Below, one piece after another: positions 2,984 through 51,720 of a stretch of DNA of 64,000 nt. Below the pieces are notes generated by a model. It worked only from the letters and a program-made list of their open reading frames with translations. It did no database searches and had not been told where the DNA came from. Within the stretch, counting starts at the first letter, position 1; each line of letters begins with the position of its first letter. Source of the stretch: Myxococcales bacterium (GTDB lineage Bacteria > Myxococcota_A > Polyangia > Nannocystales > Nannocystaceae); the NCBI GenBank assembly GCA_020633315.1, contig JACKDV010000004.1, positions 512,071-576,070 on the forward strand, in the 5' to 3' direction. Position numbers and translations under genes: made by a program.

Positions 2984-5047
2984 TCACTTGGGGGCGGCGA
3001 GCTCGGCGATGCGCTCGAGCAGGTCGGGCGTGGCCAGGCGCGGCAGCAGGGTCAGCATGCCGGAGCCGAGGCTCTTGGCGTCGACCGAGCGCATGATGTC
3101 GGGGCGCCCGTGCTCGTCGAAGCACACGAAGCTGCTCTTGCCCACGCTGTAGAACCACTCGTTGGCGGCGACCAGCAGCGCGGGGAAGTGGCGGGAGCCC
3201 CCCGGCACCAGCTCGAACACGCGGGCCGCGTCGAGCAGGCCGTACAGGTGCAGGCCGTCCTCGACCGCGTCGAGCACGGCGGCGGCGACGATCCGCCCCT
3301 GCTCCGTGGCGACGAGCATGGTCCGCTCGCGCATGAGCCCGTGGAACGCCCACTCCTGCTGGAGCTCCTCCTGCTCGAAGGCTCCGGGCAGGAGGTCGTG
3401 GGCCTCGAGATAGGCGTGGGGGCGCTTGCCCTGCAGCGCGTGCAGCACCTCGTCCACCTGCTCGGGCGTGGCCGTGTCCACGTTGGGGACGTCCACGTCG
3501 TTGCACATGGTCACGTTGAGCCGCCAGACCTCGAAGGGCACGCCGACCGAGCCCGGCATGGAGAGCACGAACTCGCGGTGCAGCACCTTGCTGAAGCCCG
3601 CGTCGTCGCGGACGTAGCCGATGAGCCACTCGAGCCCCTCGTTGGCGCCCGCCCGCTCGTAGACGTGGAAGTGGATGTCCCGCAGCGGAGAGCTGTCGGA
3701 GTTGACCAGGTGGGGTCGATCCGCGTTGCGGGCCATGTGGAGGCCGAACCAGCTCTTGCTCCACACGCGGAGACCGGCCAGCGTGGCCTCGACGCGGGTC
3801 GGGCTCTCGTACGACACCAGGCAGCCCACGTCGGGGGCCGCCGCCAGCTTGCGGTACGCGTTCTCGAAGGAGTCGCGCATCATCTGGAAGCCGAGGGACT
3901 GCCGTCGGCCTCCCGAGAGATCGAAGTAGCCCGACGCCTCGAACAGATCCCAGATCGACTGGAAGTCGTGGCCGAAGCTCCGCGTGGTGGGGTAGAGCAG
4001 GTTCTCCACCTCGCGAGCCCAGCGCTCCTGCTGTGCCTCGGGGGCGCCCGAGAGCGCCAGGCCGATGGTGTCGCAGCGATCGTAGGGCGAGGGAGATCGG
4101 TGCCGCAGGTCGCCGACGAAGCGCAGCCCGGGGCCGCCCTTCCAGGTGACGACGACCTCGGGGATGCGCAGCCCCGGCTCGACCAGCTCGAGGGCCTCCC
4201 CCACCCGCGCCGAGACCCCGCCGAAGGACACGTCCTCCATCCTGAGCTCGAGGGTGTCCGCGGCCACGCCGTGCAGGATGACCTTGGCCCCCGAGGGCGC
4301 GAGCACTCGCCTCATCTGCCGACGGCGAGTGATCCTCACGTCCTTGGGCTGGACCTGGCCGCGCCAGCCCAGCGAGTCCTCGACGAAGGACACCGTGGAG
4401 AACGGCCCCTCCACCGTCACCTCGAACGGAGCCTTCATCTCGCCCCAGCGAGGGTCCCACTCCAAGAGGAGGCCGCGCTCTGGATCGAGCCGGCCGGGCA
4501 GGCATAGCCGGTCGGCGCTGCCCAGCGAGCGCACCTGGGCCCGCGAGCGCTCCGCGGTCAGGGCACTCAGTCGGCGAGCGATCCGATCCTCGGGCAGGCG
4601 CATCCGTCGGGGGCGGAGCGGGTGGTGGGGAGCATGCGCGAGCTCGTGGAAGCGGCGCGCGAGCTCTCGCCAGCGCTCCATGCCCTCGACGATCCACAGC
4701 AGGGCCTCGTGCCCGAGCTCGTACTCGGCGAGCCCGACCACGCGAGCTCGTCCCGACAGGTGGGCACGGCTTCGATCGCGGAGCTCGAACTCCACGACCT
4801 CGGCCACCGCCATCGCGGTCGCGCTGGTGAGGGTGAGGCGCATCCCCCACTCGCTGAGCTCCTGCACGACGCCACGCAGCTCACCGCCGAAGCTCACGGA
4901 GAGCTCGGGACGCGTGGGCTCGAGGCTCTCGGGCACGAGCACCGAGGACGGCGTGACCAGGCGCAGCGACGGTGAGGTGGCTCGTTCCTCCGAGCGCTCG
5001 CTCATCGCCCGGCTCCCTCCTGCTCCTCGATCCTCTCCCGACCCCAT
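2984..5047 (-). CDS. PilZ-domain protein with C-terminal uncharacterised (GNAT-like?) domain (687 aa; alternative start at ~5005)
   Basis: Contains the PilZ c-di-GMP-binding motifs RxxxR (ITRRRQMRRV) and D/NxSxxG (EDVSFGGVSARVG). A second degenerate PilZ-like segment lies near the N-terminus (LSVSFGGELRG). Lies in tandem with the ThiF-nitroreductase gene, 55 bp apart. Confidence 0.7.
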   Translation of the reverse strand: MGSGEDRGAGGSRAMSERSEERATSPSLRLVTPSSVLVPESLEPTRPELSVSFGGELRGVVQELSEWGMRLTLTSATAMAVAEVVEFELRDRSRAHLSGRARVVGLAEYELGHEALLWIVEGMERWRELARRFHELAHAPHHPLRPRRMRLPEDRIARRLSALTAERSRAQVRSLGSADRLCLPGRLDPERGLLLEWDPRWGEMKAPFEVTVEGPFSTVSFVEDSLGWRGQVQPKDVRITRRRQMRRVLAPSGAKVILHGVAADTLELRMEDVSFGGVSARVGEALELVEPGLRIPEVVVTWKGGPGLRFVGDLRHRSPSPYDRCDTIGLALSGAPEAQQERWAREVENLLYPTTRSFGHDFQSIWDLFEASGYFDLSGGRRQSLGFQMMRDSFENAYRKLAAAPDVGCLVSYESPTRVEATLAGLRVWSKSWFGLHMARNADRPHLVNSDSSPLRDIHFHVYERAGANEGLEWLIGYVRDDAGFSKVLHREFVLSMPGSVGVPFEVWRLNVTMCNDVDVPNVDTATPEQVDEVLHALQGKRPHAYLEAHDLLPGAFEQEELQQEWAFHGLMRERTMLVATEQGRIVAAAVLDAVEDGLHLYGLLDAARVFELVPGGSRHFPALLVAANEWFYSVGKSSFVCFDEHGRPDIMRSVDAKSLGSGMLTLLPRLATPDLLERIAELAAPK

Positions 5048-5274
5048 GGCAGCCCCCTCTCCTCGATCCCGGACGGTGCTCCCGAGGTCCCCCGACCTCG
5101 ACGTCCGCCCACTGGGATCACGCCTCTCATCGGAAGGCCGATGCCTTCCAACAGCAGGATGTCACGCGAGGAACGGCGACGGCAAGCAACTTTGGTGGGC
5201 TCGCGTGCGTTCCTTTCATGTCTCGGGGATCTGCCTACAGGCTCCGAGCGCTCGCACCTCGTGGGCGATCGCCG

Positions 5275-7026
5275 TCACCTCACCACGGCCTCCACCGCAA
5301 CGGTCCCCTCCTCGGCTGCCACCCACAGCCCGTCCACATCGAGCGCTCGCTCACTGGCCTCACCGAAGATCCGCAGCCGCAAGAGCGCACCGAGGTCGAG
5401 CACCGGCAGGCGATCCGAGCGCACGCGCAGCTGCTCGTCGAGCTGGCTGCGAAGCGCCTCGGGATCGAGCACGGCGGAGAAGCACGGCACCCGTCGCTCG
5501 CGATCGCCCTGCCGCTCGCGGCACCCCAGATACGCCGCATCGAGCGCACCACCCAGCCGCACCCGGCCTACCGCATCCTCGGGCCGAAGCGCCAGCACCC
5601 CGGTCGCGCCCAGCACCACGGTGCGCATCCCCGCGCGCTCGGGATCCCCCAGCTCGAGCACCACGCCGCCCAGCGTCGCCTCGATGCTCCCGTCACCCCG
5701 CGGGCGCAGCATCGGGGGTAGCTCCACCCCCAGCGCTCGAGTCTCCCAGCGCGTGCGCTCGCCGAGGCTCGCCTGCACCTCCTCGCGCAGTCCGCTGCGA
5801 TCGAGCTCGGCCTGCAGGCCCCCGCGCACCACCCACTCGGCCAGCAGACGATTGAGCAGATCTCCGCTCACGTCCACGCGGAGGTTGGCCCCCTCCCGTT
5901 CGGGCCGACGCGGCAACGGCAGCTCGGTGCCCAGCCACACCGCCTGGCTCGCGGCCTGGGTCCCCATCGCGTCCTCGCGGAGCTCCAGCCGCAGCGCCGC
6001 CGTGAGCCCGAGCTCGGCCGACAGCCGCGGCTCACCGCACCAATGGAGGTCGGCCACCAACGCCGGCTCGGTGGGCAGCACCACCACCTGCTCGGGCAGC
6101 CTCATCGCCTCGGTGGCCACCCGTAGCGCCCGCTCGATCTGCTCCTTGGCCTCGCGCTCCACCTCGCGCCGCGCCGTCTTCTCGCCCACCTTCTCGCCGA
6201 GCTTGCGCCCCACCAGCCCGCCTCCGGCCGCCACCGCCATGCCCAGCAGCGTGCCGCCGCCCGCCGCCGCCACCAGCCCGCCACCCACCGTGACCCCGAT
6301 CGCACCCAGGCGGCGCGCTCCCTCGGCGCGCGCGAGCGCCTCGAGCTTGGGCCCGGGCGCCGCGGTGTCGAGCCGGCGCAGCGAGGCGATGATGCCCGCG
6401 TCGCCCGAGCCCCGCACGTCGATCACCCCGGCCACCCGCAGGTCGCCCTTGTCCTCCTCGCTGGTGTCGAGCGCCACGTCGAAGCGCAGGCCGCCGTCGA
6501 CCACCTCGAGCACCTTGCGGGGCAGCACGCTGGTGGGCCCGAAGTACGCATTGCTCCGCGCCCCCGCGAGCAGCTTGGTCTCGACCACGGGCAGCAGCAG
6601 GTCGTGCACTCCCTGGGGGCCGAGCACCAGGCCCAGGTCGCAGCCGCGCTCCCGCTCGTGCTGCCAGGGGCCGGAGACCACCTCGTCGGAGAAGCGGGTC
6701 ACCCGACCCCCGCGACGGGTGAGCTCCAGCTCCACGAAGTGCAGGCCCGGGGACAGCCCGGGAAGCTCGAGCGCGATCCCGTCGTCGCCCACCGGCTGCA
6801 CCACCAGCTCGGTGTGGCGATCGAGCCGCGCCCGCAGCCGCTCGCGATCCTCCGCCGGCGAGACGGCAGCCTCGTAGCGCAGCGCCCCCGCCTCGGCCCG
6901 CAGCACCCCGGCCCCGCGCTCCAGCGCCTCGATCGGCCGCGGCAGCGCGCGCAGGCCCATCGCTCCGGCCACCGCCACGGCGGCGAAGCTCAGCATGCCC
7001 AGGCCGATCGAGAGCTCCTTGCGCAT
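5275..7026 (-). CDS. Hypothetical membrane protein (583 aa) with N-terminal TM helix and a Gly/Ala-rich internal hydrophobic segment
   Basis: ORF track. N-terminal MRKELSIGLGMLSFAAVAVAGAMG hydrophobic stretch. Coherent composition. Sits 4 bp downstream of the ABC ATPase-permease gene on the same strand. Confidence 0.55.
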   Translation of the reverse strand: MRKELSIGLGMLSFAAVAVAGAMGLRALPRPIEALERGAGVLRAEAGALRYEAAVSPAEDRERLRARLDRHTELVVQPVGDDGIALELPGLSPGLHFVELELTRRGGRVTRFSDEVVSGPWQHERERGCDLGLVLGPQGVHDLLLPVVETKLLAGARSNAYFGPTSVLPRKVLEVVDGGLRFDVALDTSEEDKGDLRVAGVIDVRGSGDAGIIASLRRLDTAAPGPKLEALARAEGARRLGAIGVTVGGGLVAAAGGGTLLGMAVAAGGGLVGRKLGEKVGEKTARREVEREAKEQIERALRVATEAMRLPEQVVVLPTEPALVADLHWCGEPRLSAELGLTAALRLELREDAMGTQAASQAVWLGTELPLPRRPEREGANLRVDVSGDLLNRLLAEWVVRGGLQAELDRSGLREEVQASLGERTRWETRALGVELPPMLRPRGDGSIEATLGGVVLELGDPERAGMRTVVLGATGVLALRPEDAVGRVRLGGALDAAYLGCRERQGDRERRVPCFSAVLDPEALRSQLDEQLRVRSDRLPVLDLGALLRLRIFGEASERALDVDGLWVAAEEGTVAVEAVVR

Positions 7027-7030
7027 GGCA

Positions 7031-8671
<1,641 letters not shown>

Positions 8672-8835
8672 CGCGCACCAAGGTAGCAGCCCTCGATCGC
8701 CTCGGCCTCGCTCGCGCCCCTGCGCCGCTCTCCGAACACCGATCCTCACCCCGTGTGGAGGCCCTCACGGCGCCCGACGAGAAAGCTCGGGCGCGCCTGA
8801 AACAACCCGGCCCCCACGGTAGTCTCCTGGGGCCA

Positions 8836-11310
8836 ATGCCGCCCCAACGCCCGTCCTCCCCCCGCCTGCGCCCCCGATCGTGGCTGGGCCTGGCCCTGCT
8901 GATGTCCACCCTCGCCTGCGTCGGCAAGGCGAAGGAGACCACCTCCCCACCGACCGCGGGCCCGCCGACCACCGCGGTCCCCTCGGGCGACGAGGAGGAG
9001 CTGGCGGCCCGGCTCGAGCGCCTCGCCGCCCGCCTCGAGCAGGCCCGGGTGGACAACCACATCCCCGGCATGGCGGTGGCGGTGGTCAAGGGCGACGAGC
9101 TCGTCTTCGCCCAGGGCTTCGGCTACGCCGACCTCGAGTCCAAGCGCGAGGTGACCCCCGAGTCGGTGTTCGCGGTGGGCTCGACCACCAAGGCCTTCAC
9201 CACCACCCTCGCCGCGATGCAGATCGACGCGGGCAAGCTGCGCTGGGACGATGCCGTGGTCGATCGCGTGCCCGAGCTGAAGCTCGCCCCGCGACCCGTG
9301 CAGGCCGACGGCAAGCCGCCCCAGACCACGCTGCGCGACCTGCTGTCCCACCGCACCGGCTTCACCCGCATGAGCGTGCTGTGGGCCAGCGGCGGCCTGT
9401 CCCGCCCCGACATGCTGGCCCAGGCCAGCCACGCGGAGCCGATCGCCGACTTCCGCAAGGAGTTCCACTACAACAACGTCAACTTCGCGGCGGTGGGCGA
9501 GGCGGCGGCGCGCACCGCCGACACCACCTGGTCGGCGATGCTGCAGGAGCGGATCTTCGAGCCGCTGGGCATGGGCCACACCACCGTCACCGTGGCGGGG
9601 GCCCAGGCCGATCCCAACCTGGCGCAGGGCTACCGCTGGCGCGAGGAGAGCGAGCGCCACGAGGCCCTGCCCATGCGCGACCTCGAGGCGATCGCCCCCG
9701 CGGGCGCCATCAACTCCACCGTGCTCGACATGTCGCAGTGGCTGCGCCTGCAGCTCGGCCGCGGCGTCTTCGAGGGCGAGCGCCTGGTGTCCGAGGAGCG
9801 CATCGAGGAGATGTGGACCCCCCAGATCGAGATCGGCGCGGGCCTGCACTACGGCCTGGGCTGGATGGTCGGCGCGTGGCGAGGCCATCGCATGGTGGAG
9901 CACGGCGGCAACATCGACGGCTACGCGGCCGAGGTGGGCATGCTGCCCGACGACGGGATCGCCTTCGTGCTGCTCACCAACACCAGCAGCACCCCCTTCC
10001 AGCGCGGCTCGCTCGACCTGGTGTTCGACAGCATGATCGGCGAGCTGCCCCGCGCGGGCGAGGAGGCCGGCCCCACGCTCGACCTGTCGCCCTACCCCGG
10101 CAAGTACGTGGCCGACTTCGGCCCCTTCGACGACGCCCGCTTCACCGTGCTGGCCGAGGGCGGCTCGCTGCACGTGGACGTGCCCGGCCAGACCAAGTAC
10201 GAGCTCGCGCCCCCCAACGAGCAGGGGCGCTGGGCCTTCGCCATCACCGATCAGATCCAGGTGTACTTCGACCTCGACGAGACGGGCAAGCGCGCCCAGG
10301 TGCTGCACATGCTGCAAGGCGGGCTCGACCTCGAGCTGCCGCGCGAGGGCTACGCGTTCCCGCCGGAGGTGGAGCCCGCCGAGGTCGCCGAGCTGCTCGG
10401 GCGCTACGAGGAGGAGGGCGGCAAGCTCAAGGCCACCGTGCGAGTGGCTCGCGGGCGCCTGGTGGCCGACGTGGACGGGCAGATGGCCTTCGACCTGCGC
10501 AAGCCCGGCGAGGACGGCCGCTGGCACCTGCGCGCGCGCGACTCGATCGCGGTCAGCTTCCGGCGCGACGCGAAGGGCAAGGTGGACGCGATGATCCTCC
10601 ACCAGGACGGCAAGGACGTCCCGCTGACGCGCAAGGCTGGCGCCGAGCGGCCGCTGCCCACGGTGCAGGCCCTGCTGGCCAAGTCCAAGGCCGAGGCCTT
10701 CGAGGCGCGGCTGGCCAAGCTCGGCCCCATCGAGCTGCGCGGCAAGGTCCGCATGCCCTCGTCGGCAGTGGAGGGTCGCTTCCGCCTGGTGATCGACGCC
10801 GAGCACCACCACCGCATGGAGCTCGACCTCGGCGTGCACGGTCGGGCCATCGACACCTACGACGGCAAGGAGGCCTGGAGCGTGTCCACGATGGGCCCGC
10901 CCACCCAGGCCGAGGGCAAGTACCTGCGCCAGACCCAGCTCGGCGGGCCGCTCACCGTGGGGGACTGGAGCGCCGGCTTCGACGACGCGCGCGTGGAGGG
11001 CTGGGCCAGCCGCGACGGCAAGGAGCTGGTCGAGGTGGTGCTGCGCGCCAAGGACCTGCCGCCCCGTCGGCTGCTCGTCGATCCCAAGACCGGCGACGTG
11101 CTCGGCTTCGACGCCGTGGAGCTGGCCGAGGGCGCGGGGGGCATCCCCACCCAGGGCGAGGTGGGCGAGTACCGACGCGAGCTGGGCCTGCGCCTGCCCC
11201 ACCACCTCCGCAGCTTCAACGTGCACGCGGGGGCCACCATCTTCGAGGTGGAGACGGTGACCAAGGCGCAGGGCGATCCGGCCGAGCTGTTTGGGCGCGC
11301 GTCCCTGTAG
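8836..11310 (+). CDS. Serine hydrolase, beta-lactamase/transpeptidase-like (class C type) with extended C-terminal domains
   Basis: SxxK active-site motif (FAVGSTTKAF) in a typical AmpC/esterase context (GMAVAVVKGDELVFAQGFGYADLE). N-terminal lipoprotein-like signal peptide (WLGLALLMSTLACVG). Confidence 0.85.
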   Translation: MPPQRPSSPRLRPRSWLGLALLMSTLACVGKAKETTSPPTAGPPTTAVPSGDEEELAARLERLAARLEQARVDNHIPGMAVAVVKGDELVFAQGFGYADLESKREVTPESVFAVGSTTKAFTTTLAAMQIDAGKLRWDDAVVDRVPELKLAPRPVQADGKPPQTTLRDLLSHRTGFTRMSVLWASGGLSRPDMLAQASHAEPIADFRKEFHYNNVNFAAVGEAAARTADTTWSAMLQERIFEPLGMGHTTVTVAGAQADPNLAQGYRWREESERHEALPMRDLEAIAPAGAINSTVLDMSQWLRLQLGRGVFEGERLVSEERIEEMWTPQIEIGAGLHYGLGWMVGAWRGHRMVEHGGNIDGYAAEVGMLPDDGIAFVLLTNTSSTPFQRGSLDLVFDSMIGELPRAGEEAGPTLDLSPYPGKYVADFGPFDDARFTVLAEGGSLHVDVPGQTKYELAPPNEQGRWAFAITDQIQVYFDLDETGKRAQVLHMLQGGLDLELPREGYAFPPEVEPAEVAELLGRYEEEGGKLKATVRVARGRLVADVDGQMAFDLRKPGEDGRWHLRARDSIAVSFRRDAKGKVDAMILHQDGKDVPLTRKAGAERPLPTVQALLAKSKAEAFEARLAKLGPIELRGKVRMPSSAVEGRFRLVIDAEHHHRMELDLGVHGRAIDTYDGKEAWSVSTMGPPTQAEGKYLRQTQLGGPLTVGDWSAGFDDARVEGWASRDGKELVEVVLRAKDLPPRRLLVDPKTGDVLGFDAVELAEGAGGIPTQGEVGEYRRELGLRLPHHLRSFNVHAGATIFEVETVTKAQGDPAELFGRASL

Positions 11311-43262: not shown

Positions 43263-46200
43263 CTACCGCACCCCACGCAGCCGCCACAGCAGCGTGAACA
43301 CGCTGGGCACCACGTAGAGCGTGAGCACGGTGGACACCACCAGGCCGCCCAGCACGATCGCTCCCACCCCGCGGTACAGCTCGGCCCCCGAGCCCGGGAA
43401 CACCACCAGCGGCAGCAGGCCCGCCACCGAGGTGGCGGTGCTCATGAAGATCGGCCGCACCCGCGCCTCCACGGCCCGGGGCACCGCCTCGCGCAGCGGC
43501 TCCCCCTCGCGCAGCCGAGCCAGCGCCCCGTCGACCACGAGGATCGCGTTGTTGACCACCACCCCCACCAGGATCACGAAGCCCAGGGCGGTCATCAGGT
43601 CGAGGGGCTGCGGGGCCAGGTAGCGGTTCACCAGCCACAGCCCCAGCACCCCGCCGCCGCCCGCCAGGGGCACGGTGACCAGCACCACCAGCGGGGCCAG
43701 GAAATCCTCGAACAGCGCGGCCAGCAGCAGCAGCGAGATCACCACCGCCAGCAGCAGCACGTCGCCCATCCGCCCCTTGGCCGCCTCGAGCTGGCCCGCC
43801 GTGCCCGACAGCGCGATGTCGATGCCGCCGCCGATCGTGCCGTCCTCGTGCAGCGGGGCGAGCACCTCGTCGCGGATCACCCGCATCGCCTCCTCGAGCG
43901 CGATCGAGTCGGGCGGGGTCACCTGCAGCACGATGGCCCGCCGCCGCTCGATCCGCTTGATCAGCGTGGGACCCAGCCGCTCCTGCAGATCGGCGAGGCT
44001 CGACAGCGGCACGATGTCGCCGCTGGGAGTGGCCACCGGCGAGGCCGCGAGCGCCTCGGGGTCATCCACCTCGCGCCCGCCCGGTTGCAGCGCCCGCAGG
44101 GCCACGTCGATCTTGGGCTCGCCCTGCGGACCCAGCTCACCCACGATGGCCCCGTCCACGTAGGCATCGACCACCAGACCCAGCTCGGCCCCGCTCACGC
44201 CCAGCCCCGCCGTGTCGTCGCGCCGCGGGATCGCGTGCAGCTCGGGCGCGCCCAGGTCCAGCGAGGGGATCGGTCGCACCTGCGCCCCGGGCACGGCCTG
44301 CGAGATCGCCCCCATCAGCCGCCCGCCCAGGCCGATCACGGCCGCGAGATCGGAGCCGCTGATCTCCACCTCCACCGCGCGCCCGCTGCCGATCTGCCGC
44401 CCGAACAGCGAGGCCTGCGAGGCGAAGGCGAAGGTGCCGGGGGCCTGGCCGCCGGCCTGGCGCACGAAGGGCACCAGCTCGCCCACGCGCTCGTCCTGCT
44501 CGGCGATCACCCCGAAGATCACCTGGTTGGGGCTGCCCACGAAGAAGCTGCGCTCGATCGCCGGCACCCCACCCTCGTCCACCCCGGTGTGCGCGGCCAT
44601 CTGCCCCTGCACGTCGCGGCCGATGTCGTCGAGCTCGGCCGGCGAGTAGCCGGGCGGAGGCAGCAGGATCCCGAAGATGAGGTTGCGGTTGCCGGTGGGC
44701 AGGTACTCCATGGCGGGCAGCAGCGCCACCGCCAGCACCACCGCCCCCGCCACCGCGGCCGTGGCCACCAGCAGGCCGCGCCACCACGAGCGCACCAGCC
44801 AGCCCACCTGCCGACCGATGCCACGCCGCACCGCGGCCCCCAGCCCGCCCGTCGCGGCGTCGCCCGCCGCCCGCGAGCGCAGCAGCTTGGCCGAGAAGCT
44901 GGGGATCACCAGCACCGAGACCAGCAGCGACACCCCCACCGCGAGGGCGATGGACACCGCCACGTCGCGCAGCAGCTCGCCCACCTCGTCCTGCCAGCCG
45001 ATGATGGGCAGGAACACTGCCGCGGTGGTCACGGTGGAGGCCAGCAGCGCCCCCCACACCTCCTTCACCCCGCGGTAGGCCGCCTCGGCCGCTCCCACCC
45101 CGCGGCTGCGCCAGGTGTCGATGTTCTCGAGCGCCACGATCGAGTTGTCGACCACCATGCCCACCGCGAAGGCGGTGCCCGCCAGCGAGACCACGTTGAT
45201 CGTGCGCCCCATCAGCGCCATGCCCAGCGCGGTCCCCAGCACGCACACCGGGATCGCCACGCTGATCACGGCCGAGGCGGCGATGCTGCGCAGGAACAGC
45301 AGCAGCACCACGATCGCCAGCGCAGCCCCGATGAGCAGGTTGCTGCGCACCAGCTCGAGCGCCCCGGTGATGTAGCCCACCTGGTCGGAGACCAGCTCCA
45401 TCTCCAGGCCCTCGGGCGCGAAGCGGGTCTGGTCGAGCTCGGCGACCACCTCGCGCACCTCCTGGCTCACCTCGAGCACGTTGGTGCCCGCCTCGCGGAA
45501 CAGCAGCAGCACCATCGAGGGGCGGTCGTCCGAGAACGCCACGTCGGTGGCGTCGCGCAGGCCGGGCCGCACGGTGGCCACGTCGCCCAGCAGGATGGGC
45601 GTGCCCTCGGGACCCGCCCCGATCACGATGCGCTCGAGCTGCTGGGGCACCTCGGGGGCCACCGGCGTGCGCACCAGGTAGCGGCGCTTGCCGATGTCGA
45701 GGTCGCCGCCCGACACGTCGCGCAGCTCGGCCCCGATCCGCGCCGCCACCTGCTGCACCGTGATCCGCCGGGAGGCCAGCGCGGCCATGTCGAAGTCCAC
45801 GTGGATCCGGCTGTCGCGGCCCCCCAGGTGCATGATGGAGGCGACGCCGGGGATCCGCTCGAGCCGGGGGATGATCTCCTGCTCCACCCAGGTGCGGTAC
45901 TGCCCCACGGGCTCGCCGGTGGGCGAGCGGATGGTGATCACCGCCAGCGGGGGCCCCGAGTTGCTCGCCGCGCTCACCACCGGCTCGCGCGCGGCCGCGG
46001 GGTAGTCGGGCACCTGGGTGAGGCGGTTGCTCACCCGCACCAGCGCCTCGTCGAGGTCGGTGCCCACCTCGAACTCCAGGGTCAGCCGCGCCTCGTCGGG
46101 CCGCGCCTCCGATTCCATCTTCACCAGGCCGGGCACGGCCTTGAGCGCATCCTCTTGCTCCTCGAGGATCTCGGCCTCCACCTCCTGCGGCGACGCCCCC

Positions 46201-46385
46201 GGCCAGCGGGTGTTGATCGTCATGGTGGGCACCGTGACGTCGGGGGTGAGCTGGATCGGCAGGTCGGCGATCGACAGCGCGCCGAACATGATCACCAGCA
46301 CCACGCCCACCAGCACCGTGACCGGCCGCTGCACCGCGGTGCGGACGAGGTCTCCCGGGGACGTGGGCTCGGTGGGCTCGGCCAT
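43263..46385 (-). CDS. Efflux RND transporter permease subunit (AcrB/HAE family, 1040 aa)
   Basis: 12-TM RND architecture with conserved AcrB-family segments (e.g. GIVVNNAILLVD-like VVVNNAILVVDGAL, FMSTATSVAGLLPL). Confidence 0.95.
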   Translation of the reverse strand: MAEPTEPTSPGDLVRTAVQRPVTVLVGVVLVIMFGALSIADLPIQLTPDVTVPTMTINTRWPGASPQEVEAEILEEQEDALKAVPGLVKMESEARPDEARLTLEFEVGTDLDEALVRVSNRLTQVPDYPAAAREPVVSAASNSGPPLAVITIRSPTGEPVGQYRTWVEQEIIPRLERIPGVASIMHLGGRDSRIHVDFDMAALASRRITVQQVAARIGAELRDVSGGDLDIGKRRYLVRTPVAPEVPQQLERIVIGAGPEGTPILLGDVATVRPGLRDATDVAFSDDRPSMVLLLFREAGTNVLEVSQEVREVVAELDQTRFAPEGLEMELVSDQVGYITGALELVRSNLLIGAALAIVVLLLFLRSIAASAVISVAIPVCVLGTALGMALMGRTINVVSLAGTAFAVGMVVDNSIVALENIDTWRSRGVGAAEAAYRGVKEVWGALLASTVTTAAVFLPIIGWQDEVGELLRDVAVSIALAVGVSLLVSVLVIPSFSAKLLRSRAAGDAATGGLGAAVRRGIGRQVGWLVRSWWRGLLVATAAVAGAVVLAVALLPAMEYLPTGNRNLIFGILLPPPGYSPAELDDIGRDVQGQMAAHTGVDEGGVPAIERSFFVGSPNQVIFGVIAEQDERVGELVPFVRQAGGQAPGTFAFASQASLFGRQIGSGRAVEVEISGSDLAAVIGLGGRLMGAISQAVPGAQVRPIPSLDLGAPELHAIPRRDDTAGLGVSGAELGLVVDAYVDGAIVGELGPQGEPKIDVALRALQPGGREVDDPEALAASPVATPSGDIVPLSSLADLQERLGPTLIKRIERRRAIVLQVTPPDSIALEEAMRVIRDEVLAPLHEDGTIGGGIDIALSGTAGQLEAAKGRMGDVLLLAVVISLLLLAALFEDFLAPLVVLVTVPLAGGGGVLGLWLVNRYLAPQPLDLMTALGFVILVGVVVNNAILVVDGALARLREGEPLREAVPRAVEARVRPIFMSTATSVAGLLPLVVFPGSGAELYRGVGAIVLGGLVVSTVLTLYVVPSVFTLLWRLRGVR

Positions 46386-46397
46386 CGCGACTCGATC

Positions 46398-47510
46398 TCA
46401 GGGCTCGACCACGGCCACGGGCTGGCCCGGACGCAGGCGCTCGTTGCCCTTGACCACCACCGTGTCTCCCGCCGCCAGCCCCTCGCCGCGCACCAGGGCC
46501 TGGTCGTCGGCGGTGGCGATCACCTCCACGGGCACCGGCGCGGCCGCCCCGTCGCGCACCGCCACCACCCGCACCCCCACCGCGCCGTAGACCAGCGCAT
46601 CGCGGGGCACCACCACGCCTTCCTCGTCGCGGCGAATGGGAAACGACACGTCGACCGAGGCCCCGGGCATCAGCCAGGGTGTCGTCTCGCGCGGCACCAG
46701 GCGGATCTTGGCCGTGCGGGTGATCGGATCGAGGGCGCGCACCAGGCCGCGGATCTCGGCCGCCGTCTCGCGCTCGCCCCGGCGCACGACGGCCTCGGTG
46801 CCCGGGCTGAGCCGCTCGACCAGCTCGGCCGAGCCCTCCACGATGATCTCCACCGACTCGTCGTCCACCAGGTCGAGCACCACGTCGCCGGGGCGCACCC
46901 AGTCGCCGGGGTCGACCCGGCGCGAGGCGATCACCCCGGCGAAGGGGGCCTCCACGTGATGGCGGCCGAGCTGCACCTTGGCCTCGCGCTCGCTCGCCCG
47001 TAGCTGCGCCTTGCGGGTCTCGAGGGTGGTGGCCCGGGTCACGTCGCGCTCGATCTCCGCCTCGGGGATGATCGCCGCGCCCAGCGACTCGGCCCGCTGC
47101 CGATCGCGGCGCGCCTGCTCGAGCTCCTGCGTGGTCTCGGTCCGCGAGGCCCGGGCCGCCTGCAGCCGCGCGCGTGCCAGGCTGCCGTCGATCCGCAGCA
47201 GGGGCTCCCCCGGCTCCACGCGATCGCCCACCCGCACCGCCACCTCGAGCACCTCGCCATCGGCCCCCGCCGCCAGCTCGGCCCGATGCAGCGCCTGCAC
47301 CTCGCCGAGGAACACCCAGCGATCATCCAGCCCACCCCCCCGGGCGCTGGCCACCTGCACCCGCGCCGGCGGAGGCGCCTCGGACTGGCCGGCCGCCGGC
47401 GCATCCTTGGACTCGGCCACCATGCACGACGGAGCGCCCCCGAGCAGCGGGAGCAGCAGCATGATGGCCTGGATTGGACGAGGCATGAGCGGCGTTGGCG
47501 CAGGGTTCAC
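46398..47510 (-). CDS. Efflux RND transporter periplasmic adaptor subunit (HlyD/MFP family)
   Basis: Signal/lipobox. Coiled-coil hairpin region (Ala/Arg/Glu-rich), lipoyl-like and beta-barrel segments. Immediately upstream of the RND permease (13 bp gap). Confidence 0.85.
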   Translation of the reverse strand: MNPAPTPLMPRPIQAIMLLLPLLGGAPSCMVAESKDAPAAGQSEAPPPARVQVASARGGGLDDRWVFLGEVQALHRAELAAGADGEVLEVAVRVGDRVEPGEPLLRIDGSLARARLQAARASRTETTQELEQARRDRQRAESLGAAIIPEAEIERDVTRATTLETRKAQLRASEREAKVQLGRHHVEAPFAGVIASRRVDPGDWVRPGDVVLDLVDDESVEIIVEGSAELVERLSPGTEAVVRRGERETAAEIRGLVRALDPITRTAKIRLVPRETTPWLMPGASVDVSFPIRRDEEGVVVPRDALVYGAVGVRVVAVRDGAAAPVPVEVIATADDQALVRGEGLAAGDTVVVKGNERLRPGQPVAVVEP

Positions 47511-47633
47511 AAGCCCCGGTCCCTGCGACCGTCACGAACACTATCCGAGTTTCACGACGGAGGTGGATGAGCCCAGGCCCTGCGCCGACGTTCACCTGGT
47601 AGATCGCGCGTTGGCGTACACTTCGGACGCAGG

Positions 47634-48412
47634 ATGTTCTCCTCCATCACCGTCGAGGGCTTCCGGTGCTTTCCGCGCTTCGAGCTGAGACCCCTCGAGC
47701 GCATCAACCTCCTTGTCGGCGCGAACAACTCCAGCAAGTCGGCGATGCTGGAGGCGATCGCATTGCTCGCCTCGCGTGGGGATCCAGCGCATCGTTCCCG
47801 AGATCGTGGAGCACGCGGGGATCCCCTGGGCAGACCAAGCCCTCGGGTTCAAGGTGTTCATCCGGCCCTCGGGCAGCTACGAGCAGATCAAGGACCTCAT
47901 CCCGACGGAGCTCGCATCACGCGTCCGCGAGACGGTGGGCATCATCGTCGACGCCGACGTATCCGTCGAAGGCCGATGGCGCTCCCTTCGCGACCACTGC
48001 TCGAGCACCGTGGTCGGCCTCTCGCCCGAGCAGTGGCCAGCGGCCCCCGTCTCCGAGGGACTCGTGATCGACTTCGAGGCGCCCCAGGGTCATCGGCGTC
48101 TCGGCTTGTGGATCATGCCCGACAACCGAGCACCGGGCATGATCGAGACCTTCCTACAGCCAGCGTCTTGAGCCGACAGGCTCCCCCACCGGATTGCGCG
48201 AGCTCGCCGAGCGCAGCTGCGACGAAGCCACTGACCTCGGAGCACCGTTCTGTGCCGTGCACCGCGACAAGGCCATCATCCACACCTGGCTCGCCTGGCA
48301 AGATCCCCCGGGCCGCCAGCTTCACGACGCGATCAAGCAGCGCCAGCTCGACCCATCGACGCCGCTCGGCCTCACCTTCGCGTCCTGGTTCCGTCGCCTC
48401 TACGATCTCTAG
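47634..48412 (+). pseudogene. Frameshifted/internally deleted remnant of an OLD-family (AAA-ATPase + TOPRIM) nuclease-like gene
   Basis: Frame 1 begins with the OLD/AAA15-type N-terminus MFSSITVEGFRCF...INLLVGANNSSKSAMLEAIALL (P-loop itself degenerate). The reading frame collapses after ~50 aa. Frame 2 (47713..48171) then reads IVPEIVEHAG...GIIVDADVSVEG...LGLWIMPDN (TOPRIM-like E and DxD). Frame 3 (48194..48412) continues to ...FASWFRRLYDL. Confidence 0.4.
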
Positions 48413-49161
48413 AAGTTGCTCGCCCCCTGGTCGATCCAGTCGGCGAGGTCGTCGATGAAGGAGGGGTCGAGCGGGTCGGCCCCCCGGGGCATGCGCGAGC
48501 CGCCGCCGCCCACCGAGCCCTGGCTGCCGCGGAGCTTGTGCCACAGGTAGCTGCTCTCGTGGTCACCCGGGTCGACCAGGTAGATCGTGCTCTGATCGGA
48601 GGCCACCATGTAGAGCGCGTAGTAGGGACCGTCGCTCAGGTCGAGCGAGGAGTCCTCGCCGCCCGGCTCGTGGCAGCCCGTCACGCAGTTGTCGGTGATC
48701 ACCGGCTCGAGCTCGCTCCACGCGATCGTCCGGGGCAGGTCGCAGGCGTCGGGCACCTCCTGGCCCATGCCCTCGAGCTCGGCCGCGGTGCTCTCGAGCG
48801 CATCGCGGCACTCCACGTCGCAGGCCGCCGCCTCGGGCGCGCCCGCGTCCCAGCAGCTGCCCTCGGATCCGTAGGCCTGCTCGATCGCCATGACGTCGTC
48901 GAGCATGAGGGTGGCCGCACACTCCACCCACTGCGCGCAGGCCTGGGTCTGGCTGGGCATGGGCGGCGGGCCGTCGTCGCTGCTGCCGTCGCCGTCACTC
49001 GAGGTGGTCGCGCCGCCCGTGTCGTCGTCGGTCGCGCTCGGCCCGGTGGCCTGCGGCTCGCCGGTGGAGCCCTCGGTGGTCTCGCCCGCCGGCTCTCCGC
49101 CCTCGCAGGCCAGGCCCAGCCCCAGCCCCACGAGCCCCGTGATCATCGCTCCCCTGCGCAT
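48409..49161 (-). CDS. Secreted lipoprotein, hypothetical (acidic, Cys-containing)
   Basis: Signal/lipobox (MRRGAMITGLVGLGLGLACEGG). Asp/Ser/Gly-rich low-complexity linker then a Cys-containing globular part. Start among three nearby Met codons is uncertain. Confidence 0.55.
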   Translation of the reverse strand: MRRGAMITGLVGLGLGLACEGGEPAGETTEGSTGEPQATGPSATDDDTGGATTSSDGDGSSDDGPPPMPSQTQACAQWVECAATLMLDDVMAIEQAYGSEGSCWDAGAPEAAACDVECRDALESTAAELEGMGQEVPDACDLPRTIAWSELEPVITDNCVTGCHEPGGEDSSLDLSDGPYYALYMVASDQSTIYLVDPGDHESSYLWHKLRGSQGSVGGGGSRMPRGADPLDPSFIDDLADWIDQGASNF

Positions 49162-49244
49162 CGCGACGCCCATCGTACGACGCCGCGAGCCCTGCGGGGG
49201 ACCCCAGCGACGGGCGGGCGCGCGCCCTGCTATCATCGTGCGCC

Positions 49245-50024
49245 GTGCTGCGACGCACCGGTCGTCTGCTGCTGGCCGAGGTGCGGCGCCTGGTCTCGTA
49301 CTCGGCCCTCACCGTGCTGGTGGTCCAGGCCCTCGTGCGCCGCCCCGCCGAGGGCGGCCGCACCGTCCGCATGCAGGTGGCCAAGCAGATCGTGTTCAGC
49401 GCCTGGGACGGGGTGCCGCTGGTGCTGCTCATCGGCGCGCTCATGTCGGTCTCGATGGTGGCGCTCTCGGTCGCCCTGATCCCGAGCTTCGAGGCCACCC
49501 CGCTGGTGGGCCGCGTGCTCGCCTACGGGCTGGTGCGCGAGCTGGCGCCGCTGATGTCGGCGATCCTCGTGATCCTGCGCTCGAGCGGCGCCATCTCGGT
49601 GGAGCTGGGCTACATGAGCTGGCGCGGCGAGGTGGAGGCGCTGGAGACCCTGGGCATCGACCCGGCCAAGTTCCTGCTGCTGCCGCGCTTCGCCGGCCTG
49701 AGCGTGGCCACGGTCACCCTCAACATGCTCTTCGTGGTGGCCGCGGGGGGAGCCGGTCTGCTCACGGCCCAGGTCCTCGGGGTGGCCCCCTCGCTCTCCT
49801 ACGTGGGTGCCAACCTCGAGCAGCTCCTGCTGCCCGAGGACGCGGTGGTCTCCTTCGTCAAGAGCCTGCTGTTCGGGGGCACCATCGCCGCGGTCGCCTG
49901 CTACCACGGCCTGTCGGTCCGCGAGGATCTCACCGAGGTGCCCCGCCGGGCCAGCCGCGCCCTGGTCGAGTCGCTGAGCTGGTGCACGGTCATCGGCGTG
50001 TCCATCACCCTCATCACCCTATGA
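49245..50024 (+). CDS. mlaE: MlaE-family ABC transporter permease
   Basis: MlaE signature (GEVEALETLGIDPAKFLLLPRFAGL, cf. EQIDAL..MGI.P.RYLV.PR). 5-6 TM helices. Confidence 0.85.
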   Translation: MLRRTGRLLLAEVRRLVSYSALTVLVVQALVRRPAEGGRTVRMQVAKQIVFSAWDGVPLVLLIGALMSVSMVALSVALIPSFEATPLVGRVLAYGLVRELAPLMSAILVILRSSGAISVELGYMSWRGEVEALETLGIDPAKFLLLPRFAGLSVATVTLNMLFVVAAGGAGLLTAQVLGVAPSLSYVGANLEQLLLPEDAVVSFVKSLLFGGTIAAVACYHGLSVREDLTEVPRRASRALVESLSWCTVIGVSITLITL

Positions 50025-50683
50025 GCGTCATCGAGATCGAGGACCTGGGCATCCGACGAGGCGCCGCCGCGCTGCAGGGCGTGTCGCTGCGGGTGGGCGA
50101 GGGCGAGTCGGTGGCGGTGGTGGGCGACGACCAGGCCAGCCTCACCCTGCTCGTACGCTGCTGCGGGGGCCTGCTGCGCCCCGATCGCGGGCACGTGCGC
50201 GTGGGGGGGGTCGACGTGGTGGCGGCCGACCGGCACGCCCTGCTGGACCTGCGGCGAGCCTTGGGCTACGTGTCGATCCACGGGGGCCTGCTCGCCAACA
50301 TGACGCTGCGCGACAACGTGGAGCTGCCCATGCGCTACCACGCCGTGGCCGAGCCGGCCGAGATCACGGCCCGAGCCGACGCCCTGCTCGACGAGGCCGG
50401 GCTGCAGGGCCGCGCCAACGAGCCCGCCTCGGCCCTGCCCGCCGAGATCCAGAAGGTCGTGGCCTACCTGCGCGCGGTGGCGACCGAGCCGCGGGTGCTG
50501 CTGGTGGAGGACCCCAGCGCCCTGCTGCCGCCCCGCGGCCGGGCGTTCGTGCGCGGGCTCCATCGCCGGCTGCGCGAGCGCGGGGTGACGGTGCTGGTGA
50601 CCGACGACGACGTCGCCTTCGCGGCCGAGCTCACCGATCGGCAGCTCCGCATCGAGAGCCTCTCGCGGGGAGGCGCCGCGTGA
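50024..50683 (+). CDS. MlaF-like ABC ATPase paralog with degenerate catalytic motifs (pseudo-ATPase)
   Basis: ABC NBD fold and length. Walker A lacks the Lys (VAVVGDDQASLTLL instead of GxxGxGKS/T). Signature degenerate (LPAEIQKVV instead of LSGGQ). Walker B is VLLVEDPS. H-loop His replaced (VTVLVTDDD). Start overlaps the mlaE stop (ATGA). Confidence 0.7.
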   Translation, partial: SVIEIEDLGIRRGAAALQGVSLRVGEGESVAVVGDDQASLTLLVRCCGGLLRPDRGHVRVGGVDVVAADRHALLDLRRALGYVSIHGGLLANMTLRDNVELPMRYHAVAEPAEITARADALLDEAGLQGRANEPASALPAEIQKVVAYLRAVATEPRVLLVEDPSALLPPRGRAFVRGLHRRLRERGVTVLVTDDDVAFAAELTDRQLRIESLSRGGAA

Positions 50684-51720
50684 GCCTGCCGTTCCGCATC
50701 CGCCGGGCCGAGTGGGTGGCGGGGGCCTTCGTGCTCCTGGCCGTGGTCGCCCTGGTCGCCAGCCTGGTGCTGCTGTCGCGCGCGCGGGGCAGCTTCGAGG
50801 CCACGACCACCTACACCGTGGTCCTCCGCGACGGCTACGGCATCACCCCCGGCAGCCGGGTGGAGATGCTCGGCATCGACGTGGGCAGCATCACCGAGCT
50901 CGAGATCAGCGACGACAACCAAGTGGTGGTGGAGCTCGAGGTCCGCGAGAGCTTCGCCCCGCGGATCGCCGAGGGCTCCACCGCGCGGGTCAAGGCCTCG
51001 CTCGACCTGCAGGGCGTGCTGGGTGGGGTGGGCCTGGCCATCACCCCGGGCCGCCCCGACTCGACCCCGCTGCCGCCGGGCTCCCGCATCGAGGTGCACG
51101 AGCCCACCAGCCTGGTCGACCTGCTGCCCGTGGTGCCCGGCGATCCGCTGGTGGACGACCTCGCCGCGCTGGTGCACAACGCCCGGCTGATGAGCGACGA
51201 GGTGGCCGACCCCGAGTCGCCGCTGCACCGGGCGCTGGCCCAGCTCACCGAGCTGCTGGTGAAGATCCAGGACCGCGAGAGCACGGTGGGCCGCGTGCTC
51301 CAGGACGACGGCGAGCTCTACGGCCGCCTGATCGGCGTGCTCGACGACGTGGACGGCACGATGGGGCGGCTCGAGAAGGTGCTGGCGCGCTCCGACCGGC
51401 TGCTCCGCAGCGCCGACGGCATGGTCGACCGCGGCGACGAGCTGATGGAGGGCGCCGACGAGCTGATGGACAGCAGCGCCAAGGTGGTCGCCGGGATCCC
51501 GCCCGTGCTCGACGGCACCGATGCGGCGATGAAGGATCTCGACGAGGCGGTGCGAGCCTTCGCCGAGACCACCCGCGAGCTGAAGGCCGTCGTCGAGTCC
51601 ATGGGCCCGCTGGTGGAGCACATGGACGAGATGGTCGAGGACATGGACGCGGTGGCCGAGGCCGCGGCCAAGGTGTGGCCGCTGCGAAGGCACGCCCGCC
51701 GGGCCAAGCGCGGGGACTGA
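50680..51720 (+). CDS. MlaD/MCE-family protein with C-terminal helical extension
   Basis: N-terminal TM (WVAGAFVLLAVVALVASLVLL) followed by the MCE domain (YTVVLRDGYGITPGSRVEMLGIDVGSITELEI). Overlaps the upstream stop by 4 nt. Confidence 0.8.
   Translation: MSLPFRIRRAEWVAGAFVLLAVVALVASLVLLSRARGSFEATTTYTVVLRDGYGITPGSRVEMLGIDVGSITELEISDDNQVVVELEVRESFAPRIAEGSTARVKASLDLQGVLGGVGLAITPGRPDSTPLPPGSRIEVHEPTSLVDLLPVVPGDPLVDDLAALVHNARLMSDEVADPESPLHRALAQLTELLVKIQDRESTVGRVLQDDGELYGRLIGVLDDVDGTMGRLEKVLARSDRLLRSADGMVDRGDELMEGADELMDSSAKVVAGIPPVLDGTDAAMKDLDEAVRAFAETTRELKAVVESMGPLVEHMDEMVEDMDAVAEAAAKVWPLRRHARRAKRGD

Follow-up and report, generated by a model that had tools for sequence, protein, structure and literature searches.

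The 779-base stretch at positions 47634-48412 of the DNA analysed here (64,000 nucleotides from a metagenome-assembled genome, MAG, with a GC content of ca. 72%; this whole stretch is referred to as the window) is very probably the non-functional remnant of a two-gene module which codes for an ATPase and an OLD-like TOPRIM protein (DUF3226), and which matches the candidate defence system PDC-M38. In PADLOC-DB, PDC-M38 is listed as phage defence candidate, multi-gene no. 38; the 145 candidate systems of this set are predictions only (bioRxiv 10.1101/2024.01.29.577857). The remnant is an ordinary young pseudogene of this catalogued candidate family and is neither a working nor a new system. In the following, the ATPase gene is called A and the DUF3226 gene B, and their remains in the window are called A' and B'.

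Each of the three forward frames contributes one recognisable protein piece. Frame a (A', 47634-47786, plus strand) carries codons 1-51 of an ATPase of the ABC/AAA_15, PDC-M38A type. The start codon ATG has been kept, and everything past codon 51 is deleted. The translation, MFSSITVEGFRCFPRFELRPLERINLLVGANNSSKSAMLEAIALLASRGDP (in outline MFSSITVEGFRCF...GANNSSKS...LASRGDP), matches Pfam AAA_15 (1.9e-8) and, as the best match of all, PADLOC PDC-M38A (6.3e-16, model positions 1-51). Frame b (B' part 1, 47788-48159, plus strand) codes for residues 23-146 of a DUF3226/TOPRIM-like protein, with matches to Pfam DUF3226 (8.9e-23, 81.6 bits) and PADLOC PDC-M38B (3.1e-21). Frame c (B' part 2, 48164-48412, plus strand) continues with residues 147-229 (48164-48409) and a TAG stop codon. 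It matches the end of the DUF3226 profile (1.4e-18, 67.9 bits, positions 139-208 of 208) as well as PDC-M38B (4.1e-21), and contains an invariant HRDKAIIHTWLAWQDPPGRQLH block. When frames b and c are joined, the match extends over profile positions 13-208 of 208 (6.4e-45, 153.9 bits) and over positions 24-219 of 220 of PDC-M38B (2.1e-44); the gathering cut-off of Pfam DUF3226 (PF11536) is 27 bits, and both pieces and the joined sequence are above it. A first-pass annotation had described this three-frame layout, beginning with an OLD/AAA15-type P-loop N-terminus of about 50 residues. All pieces were recovered at these coordinates with scores far above chance, and the N-terminus is confirmed by its AAA_15 and PDC-M38A matches. 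The interpretation of the pieces as chance ORFs was rejected on the basis of the E-values. No second copy of either gene was found elsewhere in the window.

In the public annotation of the MAG, the two fragments of B are listed as separate hypothetical proteins and not as one pseudogene: H6712_11420 (47776-48171, 131 aa, MCB9714462.1) and H6712_11425 (48194-48412, 72 aa, MCB9714463.1). According to our analysis, both entries belong to a single pseudogene, which derives from a catalogued pair of candidate defence genes, and should be annotated as such.

A search for relatives with the joined B sequence yielded 1304 proteins. Among the intact ones, P0003 (229 aa, 58% identity) is closest; it is encoded on contig L004 from a Nannocystaceae MAG. 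On this contig, an ATPase gene (1208-2305) and a DUF3226 gene (2306-2995) abut; the ATPase is called with 414 aa, and the homologous start gives 365 aa. The L004 ATPase matches AAA_21 (5.5e-19) and AAA_15 (5.8e-16) across 365 aa and covers PDC-M38A completely (5.6e-65, over 1-383 of 383), and the DUF3226 protein matches PDC-M38B with 7.9e-51. Downstream follow a conserved gene in the opposite orientation and then MlaE and an ABC ATPase, which are also the downstream neighbours in the window. A second lineage (contig L011) likewise has intact A and B genes adjoining the same lipoprotein-MlaE-ABC-MlaD genes. The comparison with the syntenic region of related genomes, which had been suggested by the first-pass annotation, has thus revealed an intact pair at the matching site in both cases. 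At the protein level (tblastn), A' is 90% identical to residues 1-51 of the intact L004 ATPase and 76% identical to the L011 ATPase, and frames b and c show 52% identity to residues 23-146 and 67% identity to the C-terminus, respectively, of the L004 DUF3226 protein.

These intact loci bear directly on the earlier view that the region is one decayed gene of the OLD family, i.e. a fused ATPase and TOPRIM protein which decayed via two frameshifts and an internal loss. In OLD proteins, both domains are part of a single chain of 500-650 aa. Such a gene would explain why the frame a N-terminus also matches the models of Old and GajA (E-values 1e-8 to 1e-9), and the solved folds nearest to B are indeed TOPRIM regions of the OLD family. 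By far the best matches, however, are to PDC-M38A and PDC-M38B, which are two separate models. Furthermore, 10/10 intact loci, the syntenic ones among them, have A and B as separate genes: a stop codon terminates A, and 0-3 nt further on B has its own ATG or GTG start, with stop/start junctions such as TAG-ATG and TGAcgATG. Separate abutting ORFs in the order A, B were found on L004 and L011, in Calothrix (L007), in a Planctomycetaceae MAG (L009), on L010, where A is interrupted, and on L013-L016. The genes of the module code for ca. 365 aa (A) and ca. 220 aa (B), and residues 1-22 of B form a complete N-terminus which begins with Met and is not an interdomain linker. We thus consider a single OLD-family gene extremely unlikely. 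What remains of the proposed decayed defence-type element is the remnant of an ATPase/TOPRIM candidate defence module with a match to PDC-M38; it derives from a two-gene pair and not from an OLD gene.

The frame changes were mapped by tblastn of the A and B proteins of intact relatives against the window; the first-pass annotation had called for such a mapping with intact OLD-family proteins. The transition from frame a to frame b lies at 47786/47788, and that from frame b to frame c at 48157-48164. Two frame changes are therefore present, in agreement with the earlier count of at least two frameshifts, but the first of them proved to be the junction of a large deletion and the second a short tandem duplication. 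At the deletion scar (47785-47789, plus strand), codon 51 of A (CCA, Pro51) ends at 47786, and after a single G (47787) codon 23 of B (CGC, Arg) starts at 47788. A comparison of the breakpoints with L004 at the codon level indicates a deletion of ca. 1010 bp, which extends from codon 52 of A through codon 22 of B. The frame changes from a to b because 1010 mod 3 equals 2. No microhomology could be demonstrated at the junction (CCA|G|CGC) when it was compared with L004 as a proxy for the ancestral DNA. The peptide contexts near the breakpoints are similar in L004 (...GDP-RTIVE... in A, ...EV-RLIPE... in B).

The second frame change results from a duplication of CAGC to CAGCCAGC (48157-48164, plus strand), which was identified by base-by-base comparison with 15 closely related contigs (L001-L003 and L017-L028, see below). 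The duplication is present in the window and in 1/15 of these assemblies and absent from the other 14. The intact relatives and most of the sister sequences run uninterrupted through ETF(L/V)Q-(R/H)LEP.

The deletion has removed every ATPase motif downstream of Walker A, and the early statement that most of the ATPase core is lost is borne out: from the set of Walker A, signature, Walker B, D-loop, and H-loop, the window covers only what lies within residues 1-51. The Walker A motif itself (P-loop, codons 29-36, GANNSSKS, 47718-47741, plus strand) is altered. A codon comparison between the window, L001, L004, L011, L007, and L009 shows that codon 34 (47733-47735) is AGC (Ser) in the window and GGC (Gly) in all intact homologues, which have G-x-N-N-x-G-K-[ST]; GGC is also found in 4/16 copies from the population. 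The window thus carries a Gly34Ser exchange. In B, the deletion has removed residues 1-22 and with them the invariant V16-E17-G18 of the LLVEGxDD motif, and E17 is the predicted catalytic glutamate of the TOPRIM domain. According to an audit of conserved columns, B' part 1 lacks the N-terminal LLVEGxDD with the invariant Glu and retains the motifs IIVDAD, MPDN, and GMIETF. Both stumps have their best models in PDC-M38, and the intact orthologues at the syntenic site cover these models over the full length, as co-directional, abutting genes in the order A, B. By comparison, the copy in the window lacks ca. 86% of A and residues 1-22 of B and is frameshifted, so that the genes are not both complete.

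An assembly error was considered, as the window comes from a metagenome-assembled genome, and was rejected on the ground that the deletion recurs. The population set consisted of 16 independent assemblies, namely the window and the 15 contigs mentioned above, which were retrieved through the protein cluster of the remnant and are 99.5-99.9% identical to it. These stem from different samples and pipelines (Logan, ENA, and NCBI), and the ~1-kb deletion is found in 16/16 of them. We assign a vanishingly small probability to the alternative that the organism has intact genes and that the frame changes arose as errors in the MAG. One of the variable sites is a short homopolymer (CCC vs CC), a sequence type which would fit such an error, but the window has the frame-preserving CCC state at this site. 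The 4-bp tandem duplication is atypical of read error and recurs in a second sample (L028). The conclusion of the first-pass annotation that the gene is pseudogenised is therefore upheld, with the ~1010-bp deletion plus a frameshift as the lesions.

Within 47400-48700, four sites vary among the assemblies, all of them inside the remnant: 47733 (G/A, the Walker A change), 47866-47868 (CCC/CC, a 1-bp deletion), 48157-48164 (the CAGC duplication), and 48169 (C/T). When the intact relatives serve as outgroup, three of the states prove to be derived: the Ser codon (12/16), CC (7/16), and the duplication (2/16). The 16 assemblies represent five haplotypes. The commonest (A, CCC, no duplication, C; 8 assemblies) has an open ORF of 210 aa for a truncated B (P0121). 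Three assemblies each have A, CC, no duplication, C and G, CC, no duplication, C; in the latter, the loss of 1 bp fuses frame a to frame b, which results in an ORF of 257 aa (P0001). The remaining two are single assemblies, both with the duplication and T at 48169: the window (A, CCC) and L028 (G, CC). The two indels are 290 bp apart and occur in all four combinations, which points to homologous recombination in the population or to recurrent slippage at CCC and CAGC. The shared deletion combined with differing, segregating frameshifts argues for neutral decay and against an assembly error. The loss of a defence module has thus been caught mid-process, with alternative frameshifts segregating and recombining in a natural population.

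Several observations relate to the age of the decay. Among the columns conserved in at least 90% of 41 intact homologues, 53/54 outside the deletion are kept, and there is no in-frame stop codon; five further columns (L14, V16, E17, G18, and D21) fall inside the deletion and are lost. This indicates that inactivation is recent and that the deletion was the first hit. Of the eight segregating sites along 6.7 kb, four fall in the 779-bp remnant, as do both indels. For the remnant, Watterson's theta amounts to 1.5e-3 vs 3.5e-4 for the flanks (P about 0.04, corrected for sampling depth). This excess of polymorphism in the remnant is marginally significant and suggestive only.

The order of events was reconstructed as follows. 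In an ancestor, A and B were located beside the lipoprotein-MlaEFD genes. A single deletion of ca. 1 kb then eliminated A from codon 52 onwards together with codons 1-22 of B, and the stumps were joined out of frame. Subsequent drift led to the CAGC duplication and the Gly-to-Ser exchange in the Walker A motif in the lineage of the window, and to a 1-bp deletion instead in sister haplotypes.

Residual expression of the truncated B may occur, as the commonest haplotype (8/16) has the open 210-aa ORF. A reading in which this product (210 aa; in the window split into 131 + 72 aa) continues to be expressed and has acquired a new role, e.g. as a dead TOPRIM decoy or regulator, would be in line with the retention of 53/54 conserved residues, with an ORF that is open in half of the sampled population, and with the annotation of the pieces as proteins by NCBI. 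A high degree of conservation is expected anyway after a recent deletion, however, and in the other half of the population one or both of the indels (1 bp lost, 4 bp duplicated) shift the frame. Moreover, the truncated B has lost both its invariant Glu motif and its ATPase partner, and no promoter-like site was found at 47300-48700. We consider this reading very unlikely and retain that of a decaying, non-functional remnant.

The DUF3226 protein can be placed among TOPRIM proteins by its fold. In a fold search with B, the closest solved folds are TOPRIM regions of the OLD family. The matches include PH0156 of Pyrococcus horikoshii, the founding structure of DUF3226 (PDB 2p62, score 12.4), the C-terminal TOPRIM region of Burkholderia OLD (6nk8, 10.3), Retron Ec67 (9i2f, 9.0), Thermus OLD (6p74, 8.4), GajA (8u7i, 8.1), and AriB (8v46, 6.6). 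PH0156 shares only 16% sequence identity with B and has been deposited as a hypothetical protein. At the sequence level, the match of B to Pfam OLD-like_TOPRIM is sub-threshold (E 0.025), and a PDB search with a profile of the DUF3226 alignment had no significant hit (lowest E 0.16); useful information came from the fold search alone. Judged from the position of the motifs, the ends of strands 1 and 3 appear to be occupied by Glu17 and D75-A-D77, respectively, as in classical TOPRIM motifs. The TOPRIM-like label which had been given to the later frames is thus supported by the DUF3226 matches and by the OLD-type folds.

Beyond the TOPRIM motifs, the DUF3226 alignment contains an invariant C-terminal block (H-x-x-K-A-x-x-x-T-W-L-A-W-Q-D-P-P-G-R-Q-L-H, residues 180-201 of P0003), which is fully kept in the window remnant.

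With its OLD-type TOPRIM fold and its position, always after an ABC ATPase, DUF3226 places PDC-M38 in the same architectural class as PARIS and AbiL. While P2 Old, the Burkholderia and Thermus OLD nucleases, and Gabija GajA are fused proteins, there are two genes here. PARIS consists of the ABC ATPase AriA and the DUF4435 TOPRIM nuclease AriB. AriB is toxic, AriA is its antitoxin, and AriB cleaves tRNA-Lys (PMC11464382; PMC13064643). B differs from AriB in that it belongs to DUF3226 and not to DUF4435, and the proteins of the module are shorter (ca. 220 aa for B vs ca. 305 aa for AriB; ca. 365 aa for A vs ca. 460 aa for AriA). Intact A has partial matches to AriA (6.5e-25 over residues 196-319; 9.2e-17), which score below its matches to PDC-M38A and AbiLi. 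AbiL from Lactococcus is also a pair of an ATPase (AbiLi) and an OLD-like TOPRIM protein (AbiLii) (PMC13064643). A matches AbiLi over nearly the full length (4.1e-38, residues 1-328), whereas B does not match AbiLii, and the hosts are taxonomically distant. Neither the PADLOC AriB model nor the AbiLii model matched B from the window or from the intact loci. A full-text literature search found no paper on DUF3226 or on PDC-M38.

By analogy with PARIS or AbiL, the ABC ATPase of the intact pair would act as the sensor of infection and as a restraint on the TOPRIM nuclease. Upon infection, this effector would be released and would cut nucleic acid. If such effectors are toxic without their ATPase, as in PARIS-type systems, this may explain why a loss that disables A and B together was tolerated. 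Two further proposals concern the remnant: that the truncated 210-aa B is an expressed dead decoy or regulator, or, in a milder version, that the one-step double loss is the footprint of a toxin-antitoxin-like coupling. We regard them as a long shot. If the milder version were true, it would be natural genetic evidence that the PDC-M38 candidate works like PARIS, with B being toxic unless restrained by A. An obligatory co-inactivation is countered by L010, where A is interrupted yet the B ORF is open, though HAN replaces DAD.

In L010 (2519-5648), the ATPase gene is split into residues 1-63 (2519-2707) and residues ~154-366 (4345-4998). The halves are ca. 1.6 kb apart, and the sequence between them encodes a transposase-like ORF which is apparently frameshifted. 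In the open DUF3226 ORF downstream, IIVHAN is found in place of IVDAD.

The remnant is located between two sets of conserved genes. Upstream and outside the element is an RND efflux operon of the AcrB family, with the gene for its HlyD-type membrane-fusion protein as the neighbour (46398-47510, minus strand; Pfam HlyD_D23, 2e-15) and its RND pump at 43263-46385 (Pfam ACR_tran, 6e-190). Downstream is a conserved secreted or lipoprotein-like gene of 275 aa without Pfam match (48409-49236, minus strand), which is convergent with B', and beyond it MlaE-ABC-MlaD (49245-51720). The downstream flank is the same in L004 and L011, which carry the intact pair, and its synteny extends to Paraliomyxa miuraensis SMH-27-4 (L006). 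The latter strain has the same flanks on both sides (RND-MFP and lipoprotein-Mla), and the 3.8 kb between them (5262-9104) contain unrelated genes and neither A nor B, which marks the slot as a variable region. A scan of the genome collection with MlaE found two relatives only, L006 and L005; L005 shares the Mla genes alone and is uninformative with respect to the slot. The space which separates the two operons (RND efflux and lipoprotein-Mla) is thus a variable accessory site in this group of Nannocystaceae-related myxobacteria: two relatives have the intact pair there, and Paraliomyxa has unrelated genes.

The GC content of the remnant is 66% vs ~73% for its neighbours, and that of the intact genes in L004 and L011 is 64-65% vs 70-74%. 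The lower GC content of the module in all three genomes is consistent with an accessory or horizontally acquired origin. No tRNA genes were found around the remnant, no Rfam matches in the whole window, and no promoter- or terminator-like sites at 47300-48700; repeats around the remnant are short and at chance level. The lack of tRNA genes, Rfam matches, and integrase-type repeats means that there is no evidence of integrase-type insertion boundaries.

In the Paraliomyxa slot, the genes code for a short ORF which by eye resembles a flavoprotein of the pyridoxamine-phosphate-oxidase type, a secreted protein of 645 aa, and a Gly/Ser/Thr-rich lipoprotein of 247 aa. In the window, the palindrome CTAG (48409-48412) contains the overlapping stop codons of B' (TAG, 48410-48412) and of the 275-aa gene (CTA on the plus strand, 48409-48411). 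In L004 (2992-2995), the genes are called with the same 4-nt overlap, and this also holds for the population contigs. The 3' end of B may have survived because a deletion there would damage the convergent neighbour. The 275-aa protein has a signal-like start, a low-complexity N-terminal half, and a C-terminal ...NCVTGCHEPGGEDSSLDLS... motif which is conserved in Paraliomyxa and L004; 2/8 of the population polymorphisms (49012 and 49120) are in its N-terminal region.

Distant A and B pairs, with the ATPase gene immediately upstream of a B that is 31-35% identical, occur on four IMG/VR contigs classed as viral (L013-L016), so that the module also travels on phage or prophage-like DNA. On L011 (1-3839), a second ABC ATPase gene is encoded on the opposite strand (1631-2707), 1.2 kb upstream of A and B, with PADLOC hits of the PtuA/AriA type down to 4e-24. 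It is followed by genes for proteins of 297 aa and 407 aa without family match. Together, these genes may form a second ATPase-based module, in which case the locus would be a small defence island.
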